IMG/VR virus record: IMGVR_UViG_2529292905_000001
From: a virus
Taxonomy: Monodnaviria > Loebvirae > Hofneiviricota > Faserviricetes > Tubulavirales > Inoviridae
DNA: 7,960 nt
Reading direction: 5' to 3' (one strand)
A program made the position numbers. This document shows positions 6,001 to 7,960 of the stretch, piece after piece. Positions within the stretch are counted from its first letter, which is position 1; every line of letters starts with the position of its first letter.

Positions 6001-7960
6001 TTATAAGTTACTCCTTCCCTCCCCTCCATTGACCAGACGCGAACATATACAGGTATCTGGACTAACTTACCGATAAAATTATTTGCCTGATTCATTACAC
6101 CGGCATTAACAAGAGCCTGAGATACACGAATAATAATCTGGTCTTGCTTAGTGCCGCCAAAACCATCAGGAATCTCTAAGCCAACACCAATTTCATTATA
6201 GTATCCCTGACCATTGACCTTATTACGCTGGCGAGCACCAAGCATTTTACCTTTTACAAAAAGACCATAATTAGACATATCACTCTCCTTTAATGCCAGT
6301 TACTGGCATGTGAAATACGGTTATAATCGAAAATTAAACCTTTCTCATAAACCCATGATGGAATTTTGGCTGGTTTGGCTTCAAGAGTACGAACCAACGG
6401 AACAACGTTATTAGAATCCGGTGACTCACAATAAAAGTTAATATCTATTCCGAAAGAAAGTAATTCTTTACGGTGTCGGTAGAATGTAGGTTTCGGTAGC
6501 ATCTCTTTCATGTTCGCGCCCTGCTTCCACAATAAATATGTAGACTGTATTTTTCTTGGGAGATTAATTATTTTTTCATCAGTTAATATAGTATTTTGAT
6601 TCATTTCTATTCTCCCTACATAGTCAGAGAATAATTTATTGGGCGTCTCAATATTCCAGCTATTACCAAGCGTAAGATTCAAATCAATTAATTCAGTTGT
6701 TCTTAATGTTAATTCAATGCGTAATTTATCTTTTGACCAGTCCAGTAAACCAGCTTTAACGAATTCGTCTGCCATCTGGTGCCCTTTTTTGCCAGATGTA
6801 TGCTCATCATATTTTGAATAAAATTTCAGGCTCCAACGACGGGAGTTTTTCCCTAAGTAAACAGTGCCACCTTTACCACAGGCGCGACCGTGGCGAGTTT
6901 TAGCTTTAAATTCTGCGGCATATAACCATGCGCGGACATTTTCTAATGTTGACAATGAATACATGTAATTGATATCGATGCGCGAGATCTTAAATTGCCC
7001 TTCCATGACCTGCCGATAGGATGGTAGATCATGAGGAATATGCAGTAATGCCAATATTCTGGCGTAAGCTGTTAACACCAACCCTTGCAAATCGTCGGAA
7101 CCGATAACAGAGTGACCTTGCAAAAACTTTGATGGATTACCGTCAATGTAGAGATGTGTTGCCCGACCTTCACCATCAGATCCAACAGACCTTACTTTCA
7201 TTGTGGACTCATGCGAACCGCGAACGGTCAACCGTTTTACTGTTTCCCACTCCACTGCACCGTCAGCATCGACGCTGACGACACTACCAGCCGGTAACGG
7301 TCGGTGTGTGCAAGGCAGGATTCCGGTAAACCAGTCGATCATAAGTAGTCACACCCATCAAAATATGTGTCAATAGTCATTTGTGAGCAGATTGAATGGT
7401 CACAATGTAATATGCTCAGATCTGACAGTTAATACATTTGCAATGTTTAAATTGTCAGAAATGAGCATCAAATCTAACTATTGAAAAACCACTGTTAAGA
7501 TGGAGCCAAGTAGATGGGCAACAATGAGCATGAAGTTATGGCGGACAAACAGAGAGCAGAACGTATCAAAAAGGTAATTCTGGAACACTCGACTTATGAA
7601 GAACTGGCCGAGAAGACTGGCATTAGCGTGAGTACGCTGGTCAGAATAGCGTCCGGCAAAACTGAACCTAAATTCAGTGACATCATTCAGATAGCTAAAA
7701 TTACGGGTGCAGACTTAAACACCTTAGCTTATGGCTATGCTCTTGATGTTAAAGAAGAAGCTACCGAGCGGAAGCTAATCACTTCTGCGGATGGATATAC
7801 TGATGAAGAAACCACTAACGCACATAATTTCATCGTGTGGAACATCAGGACACTGGAAAAACAAGATATTCTGGCACTCGCAAGGCAGGTTTCTGCCTTA
7901 AGTTCATACACTTACAGTACTAAAATGTTTATGAAAAAAGCGGTATCTGGAGAAGAGTAA

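Follow-up and report, generated by a model that had tools for sequence, protein, structure and literature searches.

Which DNA sites does the regulator of a filamentous prophage use to hold its replication gene in check, and can they be recognised in the gap that separates the two genes? We addressed this question for a 7,960-nucleotide (nt) stretch of inovirus DNA (record IMGVR_UViG_2529292905_000001), analysed over its full length and referred to here as the window. By its database matches, the window is a dif-integrated filamentous prophage of Escherichia coli of the CUS-1/YpfΦ type, a phage that is already known. It carries a replication gene of gene II/X type, rep (6290-7342, minus strand; Pfam Phage_CRI at 1.2e-73, together with G2P_X_C), and, divergent from it, a gene for a 148-residue regulator (7514-7960, plus strand). 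With the rep start codon at 7342-7340 (minus strand) and the ATG of the regulator at 7514, the two genes leave an intergenic gap of exactly 171 bp (7343-7513). An earlier annotation, made from the DNA alone and called the sequence-only reading below, had proposed a divergent control region with candidate repressor operators between the two genes, and its boundaries coincide with this gap. We consider it likely that the gap is an immunity, or control, region in which 16-bp operators of the regulator control rep, the presumed target of repression.

Palindromic sites in the intergenic gap

Computation showed the sites themselves, how they are conserved, how they vary together with the recognition helix of the regulator, and the conserved promoter boxes. 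Written symmetrically, the repeated unit is a 16-bp palindrome consisting of two 6-nt half-sites around four spacer nucleotides (6-N4-6), the copies of which we name S1, S2, S3 and S4. The distal site, S1 (TAGTCA-TTTG-TGAGCA, 7374-7389), includes an exact match to the core, GTCATTTGTGAGCA, at 7376-7389 on the plus strand. The middle site, S2 (TGCTCA-GATC-TGACAG, which is TGCTCAGATCTGACAG, 7413-7428), has its core on the minus strand at 7413-7426, and the proximal site, S3 (TTGTCA-GAAA-TGAGCA, which is TTGTCAGAAATGAGCA, 7452-7467), with its core at 7454-7467 on the plus strand, begins 62 nt before the regulator ATG. From centre to centre, S1 and S2 are 39 bp apart, as are S2 and S3. The 14-mer core GTCA-N4-TGAGCA occurs three times in the window when both strands are read, always within 7376-7467, against 0.01 expected from 200 shuffles, which excludes a chance origin of the repeats. 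The hexamer TGAGCA/TGCTCA is found seven times in the window, and four of these copies fall within 7384-7530. Allowing one mismatch to the core adds a fourth copy at 7517-7530 and none elsewhere in the 7960 nt. This copy belongs to S4 (TGGGCA-ACAA-TGAGCA, 7515-7530), which lies 63 bp from S3 between centres, within regulator codons 1-6, and is an uncertain candidate for a weak operator: the T that is otherwise invariant in the left TCA is missing, the site is absent in relatives with the same recognition helix, and its retention in the CUS-1 lineage is confounded by coding.

These assignments leave much of the sequence-only reading in place and correct it in detail. It had located TGCTCAGATCTGACAG exactly, and our own count from the sequence agrees that this 16-mer and TTGTCAGAAATGAGCA are reverse complements at 13 of 16 positions. 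The second 16-mer was given correctly as a sequence, but it lies one base further left than the 7453-7468 reported. A third TGAGCA is indeed present at 7384-7389, yet it is the right half of the complete site S1 and not an isolated half-site. In the same way, the repeats that had been described as a pair of inverted 16-mers exist, but the pair is not the unit, since each 16-bp palindrome would be functional alone. S2 and S3 do in addition lie in a bigger imperfect palindrome, detected by a repeat search, with 27-nt arms (7412-7438 and 7442-7468) that are 81% complementary.

We then aligned the region from eight close relatives, whose regulators are 85-100% identical. The TCA/TGA cores and the outer TG/CA are invariant, whereas the 4-nt spacers and the flanks vary: the spacer is TTTG, TTTA, CTTC or CTTT in S1, GATC, GTTC or CTTC in S2, and GAAA, GAAG or TAAA in S3. 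Because the S2 spacer varies in this way, its GATC is not a conserved Dam site. With their half-sites invariant in all eight relatives, the repeats are conserved in related phages, a point on which the sequence-only reading had staked its proposal. The 19 distinct sites of all regulators sharing the same helix give the consensus TGSTCA-nWWn-TGASCA, in which the two central spacer positions are always A/T. S1 and S3 are the two sites retained by every lineage, and S3 is a perfect TGCTCA-N4-TGAGCA in the loci that we number L028, L029, L030 and L054/55; S2 is restricted to the CUS-1/YpfΦ lineage and is missing from L028, L029, L030 and L054.

Regulator specificity and an exchangeable cassette

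The regulator combines an N-terminal Cro/C1-type helix-turn-helix (HTH) domain with a C-terminal helical region. It matches Pfam HTH_3 above the cut-off (E 1.6e-9) and PHROG 3557 over its full length. In the AlphaFold model, the HTH domain has a predicted local distance difference test score of 82-89, the C-terminal part consists of two predicted helices, and the recognition helix falls at about residues 38-46 (SVSTLVRIA; modelled helix 39-46). In structural superposition, this domain matches those of 434 Cro, SinR and the N-terminal part of P22 c2 with a root-mean-square deviation of ~1.4 Å and a template modelling score of ~0.8, at 31-33% identity over 64 columns. A fold search with the regulator returned generic Cro/C1 domains only, and a sequence search of the PDB returned no close solved relative. 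Its similarity to the El Tor RstR of CTXphi (26% identity over 78 residues of the HTH only, pairwise E 5e-6) is at the generic XRE level.

We sorted 50 distinct upstream regions, drawn from genomes, viral contigs and metagenomes, by the recognition helix of the adjoining regulator. Nearly every helix class has 6-N4-6 palindromes at fixed positions: in the first three of the classes listed below, they are found near -62 and -140/-143 relative to the ATG of the regulator, and in the last two, GVNITTLKRI and GINIGTLKRI, the site positions are displaced by 10-60 nt. The helix GISVSTLVRI goes with half-sites T(G/T)(C/G)TCA...TGAGCA, GINVRTLVRI with GGACA...TGTCC and AGACA...TGTCT, GIG(T/S)RTL with TAGACA...TGTCT, GVNITTLKRI with GACACT...AGTGTC, and GINIGTLKRI with GTCACA...TGTACC, so that the matrix of helix-by-motif counts is block-diagonal. 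The two or three sites of a genome have always changed together, and neutral drift does not explain such a concerted change. The helix residues that vary (38, 40 and 43) all face outward in the predicted recognition helix. Ser38/Ser40 accompanies TCA half-sites, while Asn or Gly at position 38 together with Arg40 accompanies GACA in place of (G/C)TCA. By our own alignment with the helix of 434 repressor, residue 40 corresponds to the base-contacting Gln29 of that protein.

The sites also follow the regulator when the replication gene differs. An Aeromonas veronii contig (L028, 1093-3447) holds a CTX-type filamentous prophage, with Rep_trans and CTX_RstB, in which a 57%-identical regulator with the same helix sits at the rstR position; its sites occur at the same offsets, as TGGTCA-TTAG-TGAGCA and a perfect TGCTCA-CAAA-TGAGCA. 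The converse is seen in a prophage of enterotoxigenic E. coli (ETEC), the rep of which is 97.6% identical to that of the window. Here the homology ends exactly at the rep ATG (7342), beyond which come an unrelated intergenic region, a regulator only 41% identical and different sites, and it resumes at window-equivalent 7971, 11 nt past the regulator stop. These two exchanges mark the intergenic region and the regulator gene as an exchangeable immunity cassette, as in CTXphi, that moves between filamentous phages with unrelated replication proteins. The invariant half-sites, their co-variation with the recognition helix and their retention across Rep families all indicate that the repeats behave as operators of the regulator, in line with the sequence-only reading, and we regard the operator assignment as strongly supported by these comparisons.

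A homologue of the regulator is also found outside phages. Conjugative, IncP-like plasmids of ~41 kb from E. coli and Salmonella encode a 122-residue protein that is ~60-63% identical and has an identical recognition helix, GISVSTLVRIASGK; the gene, at 29453-29821 in NZ_CP033354.2 (L100) and present in ~30 other conjugative plasmids, comes after a resolvase gene. The TGCTCA-N4-TGAGCA operator is absent from the plasmid with the homologue (one match at two mismatches, against 2.0 expected). Such an orphan repressor could protect the host of the plasmid against pilus-specific filamentous phages of the same immunity type.

Promoters, proposed repression and other explanations

The proposed rep promoter, P_rep (7404-7432, minus strand), is of the sigma-70 type and consists of a -35 TTAACT (7432-7427), a 17-nt spacer and a -10 TACATT (7409-7404), and the rep transcript would start near 7397. 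Reading by hand, we found TTGAC(A/T)-N17-TAnnAT/TAnnTT at one leftward position in all ten lineages read in this way, and at the homologous position a promoter scan called TTGACG-17-TATATT in L009, TTGACA-17-TAGGAT in L028 and TTGACA-17-TAGCAT in L006, each matching at 10 of 12 positions. S2 fills the 17-nt spacer of P_rep, S1 covers about +8 to +23 of the proposed transcript and S3 is centred ~62 bp upstream; in all lineages, S1 and S3 bracket the rep promoter at 78-81 bp. On the other side, a candidate regulator promoter is represented by an extended -10, TGtTAAGAT (7493-7501, hexamer 7496-7501, plus strand), directly before GGAG (7502-7505). In 28 of 29 distinct sequences, the proximal operator is followed at exactly 28 nt by a TAnnnT box, a pattern with a background frequency of 1.3%. 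The box takes the form of six different hexamers; L033 has TACAAT, offset by one. A further conserved box, TGTCAATAG (reverse complement CTATTGACA, 7368-7376), abuts S1 and stands beside the distal operator in every operator class. It recurs in the intergenic region of phage I2-2 (L002, 2979-2987), where its orientation relative to gene II is opposite. Read as CTATTGACA, the box makes a perfect leftward -35 toward rep; we nevertheless rejected TTGACA at 7373-7368 as the -35 of the rep promoter, given that no conserved -10 follows and that the start would lie within rep. We also rejected a mirror-image rightward promoter about the palindrome centre, the mirrored hexamers of which are not promoter-like.

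From this arrangement we infer the binding itself, the direction of regulation, the transcription start sites and looping. Dimers of the Cro/C1-type regulator would recognise the 16-bp palindromes: S2 within the P_rep spacer, S1 just past the start, and S3 upstream of both and 28 nt before the -10 box of the regulator. Occupied sites would block transcription of rep and of the downstream phage genes, and this repression would keep the prophage or the replicative form quiet, with type-specific superinfection immunity as a result. The sites may also set the expression of the regulator itself, and, with S1 and S3 bracketing the promoter, the C-terminal helical domain might mediate cooperative binding or looping. 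A switch between lysogeny and phage production at these operators, as the sequence-only reading had it, may reasonably be expected by analogy with RstR of CTXphi.

Several observations weigh against this scheme. The P_rep of the window itself is weak, matching at 8 of 12 positions, and was missed by the promoter scan. Its low score stems from a T at 7430 that is unique to the window, all 53 other fetched copies having C there; with this T, the -35 reads TTAACT instead of TTGACT. Either a promoter-down variant peculiar to this prophage copy or a sequencing difference may account for it. The sole call that the scan made in the window, TTAACA-16-TAGATT (7498-7471, minus strand), has a -10 that is not conserved among relatives, and we rejected it. 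A transcript starting after the TAAGAT box would exclude the conserved GGAG, a ribosome-binding site, from the mRNA, and the regulator may accordingly have a short-leader mRNA, a second upstream promoter (for example TGtTTAAAT, 7444-7452), or both. Measured from the start that this box implies, S3 is centred at about -48, which is neither classic repressor nor classic activator geometry, and the distance from S1 to S3 amounts to a non-integral 7.4-7.7 helical turns. Co-variation between lineages is partly what common descent would lead one to expect, and the argument therefore rests on the concerted change of two to three sites per genome. Finally, the literature searched contained neither a published operator or promoter map for the YPO2273/CUS-1 regulator nor binding, footprint, reporter or start-site data for the CUS-1/YpfΦ phage.

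The repeats might also be explained without the regulator. It is conceivable, if improbable, that the 57-nt S2/S3 palindrome (7412-7468) functions chiefly by folding into a hairpin in single-stranded viral DNA, where it might serve as the complementary-strand origin or in packaging or recognition, with the repeats as its stem; a milder version has the repeats doing double duty, as operators in double-stranded and as a hairpin in single-stranded DNA. The viral strand does fold into a long hairpin (-15.3 kcal/mol, z = -5.2, with none of 200 shuffles as stable), homologous hairpins are present in L021, L024 and L025 (z -3.5 to -6.1), and spacer substitutions have raised S2/S3 complementarity in three sublineages (L019/L084, L021/L080 and L024/L088), to the point that the spacers of L024/L088 are exactly complementary (GAAG/CTTC) and fold at -18.8 kcal/mol. 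However, when pairs were formally counted on the alignment, none proved compensatory, and in 14 of the 27 the only departure is loss of pairing. In L009, with a regulator 85% identical, the hairpin is lost (-7.2 kcal/mol, z -1.2) whereas S1-S3 are retained and S2 is a perfect palindrome alone. All other lineages have kept S1, S3 and both promoter boxes without S2 and without the long hairpin, and S1 is a third copy that has no partner arm. The complementarity may be explicable if S2 arose as an inverted duplication of S3 and was then subject to gene conversion, and in our view the hairpin simply results from two operators in inverted orientation. An Rfam search gave no family, only meaningless sub-threshold matches to miRNA hairpins. 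The combined use, in which the two operators on either side of the rep promoter -35 in double-stranded DNA become a hairpin that rebuilds a double-stranded operator/promoter in the incoming or packaged single strand, seems to us quite improbable. If it were true, a resident repressor or RNA polymerase could act on the phage genome before complementary-strand synthesis, and selection or arm-to-arm gene conversion would explain the spacer changes that raise complementarity.

That the sites serve a host regulator (LexA, CRP, RovA/SlyA or IHF) instead of the phage regulator is highly unlikely, even though there are precedents: the PrstA promoter of CTXphi is reportedly co-repressed by LexA, and RovA of Yersinia pestis binds the YPO2274 promoter region and represses YPO2274-2279 (PMC4266046). 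Within 7343-7513 there is no match to the LexA consensus at up to three mismatches and no CTGT-N8-ACAG at up to one, and TGTGA and TCACA near S1 are separated by 12 nt, whereas CRP needs 6 nt. Sites of host factors would, moreover, neither change in concert with the recognition helix nor persist across E. coli, Aeromonas and other hosts, although RovA may well act additionally on AT-rich parts of the region. We find it hardly credible that the repeats are binding sites of the replication initiator, the gene II protein, and that the gap is the plus-strand origin. In Ff phages the plus origin does lie directly upstream of gene II, just as the repeats lie directly upstream of rep. But the repeats track the type of regulator and not the type of Rep, as seen in the Aeromonas and ETEC loci, and what the origin region of I2-2 shares with this phage is a single element ~30 nt past the regulator stop, at window-equivalent 7990-8016. 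An origin within 7343-7513, which the sequence-only reading had entertained, is thus not supported, because the shared hairpin is outside the window and follows the Rep type. The regulator's operators remain the reading that we prefer.

The prophage, related immunity regions and the probable origin

At ≥99% identity, the window sequence matches a chromosomal prophage that adjoins the ydeP-fimbrial locus in ~98 complete E. coli genomes, UTI89 and NC101 among them. An exact 28/28 match to E. coli dif at 190-217 (minus strand) marks the left junction between prophage and host. The phage also occurs in its replicative form, recorded as a 9565-bp circular 'plasmid'. Strain CUWW06 carries the prophage as a tandem duplicate, with a period of 9566 bp. 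The regulator protein is 100% identical to YPO2273 of Y. pestis (copy in NCTC5923). It is these E. coli matches, together with dif, the replicative form and the Y. pestis-identical regulator, that establish the CUS-1/YpfΦ assignment; a megablast search of the window against a phage collection gave no match. In addition to rep, the product of which is 57.8% identical to the gene II protein of I2-2, the minus strand of the window carries genes for a gene V-like DNA-binding protein, coat proteins, a gene III-like protein, a DUF2523 protein in the gene VI position, a Zot protein of gene I type and a secretin.

In a 2014 review of YpfΦ, YPO2273 is noted to sit at the rstR position, its role awaiting demonstration, and resident YpfΦ is reported to protect partially against superinfection (PMC4266046). 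The closest known parallel is the rstR/ig-2 region of CTXphi in Vibrio cholerae, another dif-integrating filamentous phage with a repressor gene divergent from, and directly upstream of, its replication gene. The ig-2 region is 138 bp long, compared with 171 bp here, and contains three repressor sites and adjacent divergent promoters (PMC4762005); both regions are thus compact, with three repressor sites, predicted ones in the present case. Repression by RstR through ig-2 is allele-specific, and 11 rstR types have been described (PMC11509585). Such type-specific cassettes are mirrored by the at least five helix/operator classes and the clean cassette swap in the ETEC prophage, which are known here from sequences alone, and RS1-like tandem satellite arrays are common to CTXphi and the ETEC relative. 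The two systems differ in that the CUS-1/YpfΦ regulator has an extra C-terminal region of ~70 residues, Rep is of gene II and not RstA type, no rstC-like antirepressor was identified and no LexA box is present in 7343-7513. The operators defined here are short 16-bp palindromes, whereas Kimsey and Waldor, in work from 2004, reportedly found the RstR sites to be larger and bound by tetramers.

The lambdoid Cro-cI systems, including those of 434 and P22, share the Cro/C1-type HTH fold, multiple palindromic operators around divergent promoters, half-sites one helical turn apart with an AT-rich centre, and specificity set by residues of the recognition helix. Unlike them, the element described here is a single-stranded DNA filamentous phage, with no evident cro-like second regulator in the rep direction. 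Nor does its regulator contain an S24 peptidase (LexA-like) self-cleavage domain, the Pfam scan having matched HTH families only, and RecA-mediated self-cleavage is not expected. With neither this domain nor a LexA box, induction must differ from that of both lambda and CTXphi. Among filamentous phages, HTH repressors divergent from a replication/structural operon bind the rep-side promoter in SW1 (FpsR; PMC4762005) and, reportedly, in Pf4 (Pf4r; PMC8402870). The SW1 region spans 621 bp with long overlapping 5' untranslated regions, and FpsR does not bind its own promoter (PMC4762005), whereas the region described here is compact and its proximal site is fixed 28 nt from the regulator -10 box.

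Conceptually, then, this is nothing new: the CTXphi RstR/ig-2 logic in another phage group, and the expected immunity region of a known phage, now with defined sites that constitute a new annotation and no new system. In extra-intestinal E. coli K1 and in the plague bacillus, CUS-1 and YpfΦ have been linked to fitness, and the operator consensus, the promoter boxes and the natural specificity classes offer testable targets for immunity, induction and heteroimmunity. The regulator/operator classes also form a small natural data set on the rules of HTH recognition.

As for the origin, comparison of the I2-2 intergenic region (I2-2 being L002) with the phage yielded a single significant match, of 48 nt at 87.5% identity (E 3e-10; L002 2666-2712), and within 7343-7513 there was no match to that region except the 9-nt box. 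The 48-nt element contains the hairpin ACGTGCAGT-N9-ACTGCACGT. In the CUS-1/YpfΦ phage this takes the form ACGTGCAGT-ATTACCAAC-ACTGCACGT, at 13990-14016 of L001, which is the stretch just beyond the end of the window named above, and is preceded by a small palindrome, GTCTCA-GGAA-TGAGAC. The hairpin is present in every locus that has an I2-2-type Rep of 315-350 residues and extends far enough beyond the regulator stop, and it is absent with the CTX-type Rep_trans of L028 and the 492-residue Phage_CRI Rep of L029. It is the probable plus-strand origin. Its viral-strand loop reads GTTGGTAAT, in which we take the stretch T-AATAC to resemble the nick context of f1, T/AATAG.

Two further features were noted in the origin regions of relatives. 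The ETEC strain ETEC-2264 (L003, 9694-13370) harbours an RS1-like tandem satellite array preceding the last complete unit. Each array unit comprises a truncated gene V, rep, the intergenic region, the regulator gene and a partial origin hairpin, and at the junctions window-equivalent 8002-8005, in the hairpin loop, is joined to 6162 within gene V, as aberrant rolling-circle termination at a nick site would produce. In I2-2 itself, a small unannotated open reading frame (MKKPVRTTASITTEKKKNLSDTAIRISTSTGVQV..., read by eye) lies on the minus strand at ~2790-2917 of L002, with the origin-like hairpin on one side and gene II on the other, and occupies the position that the regulator gene takes in CUS-1/YpfΦ.

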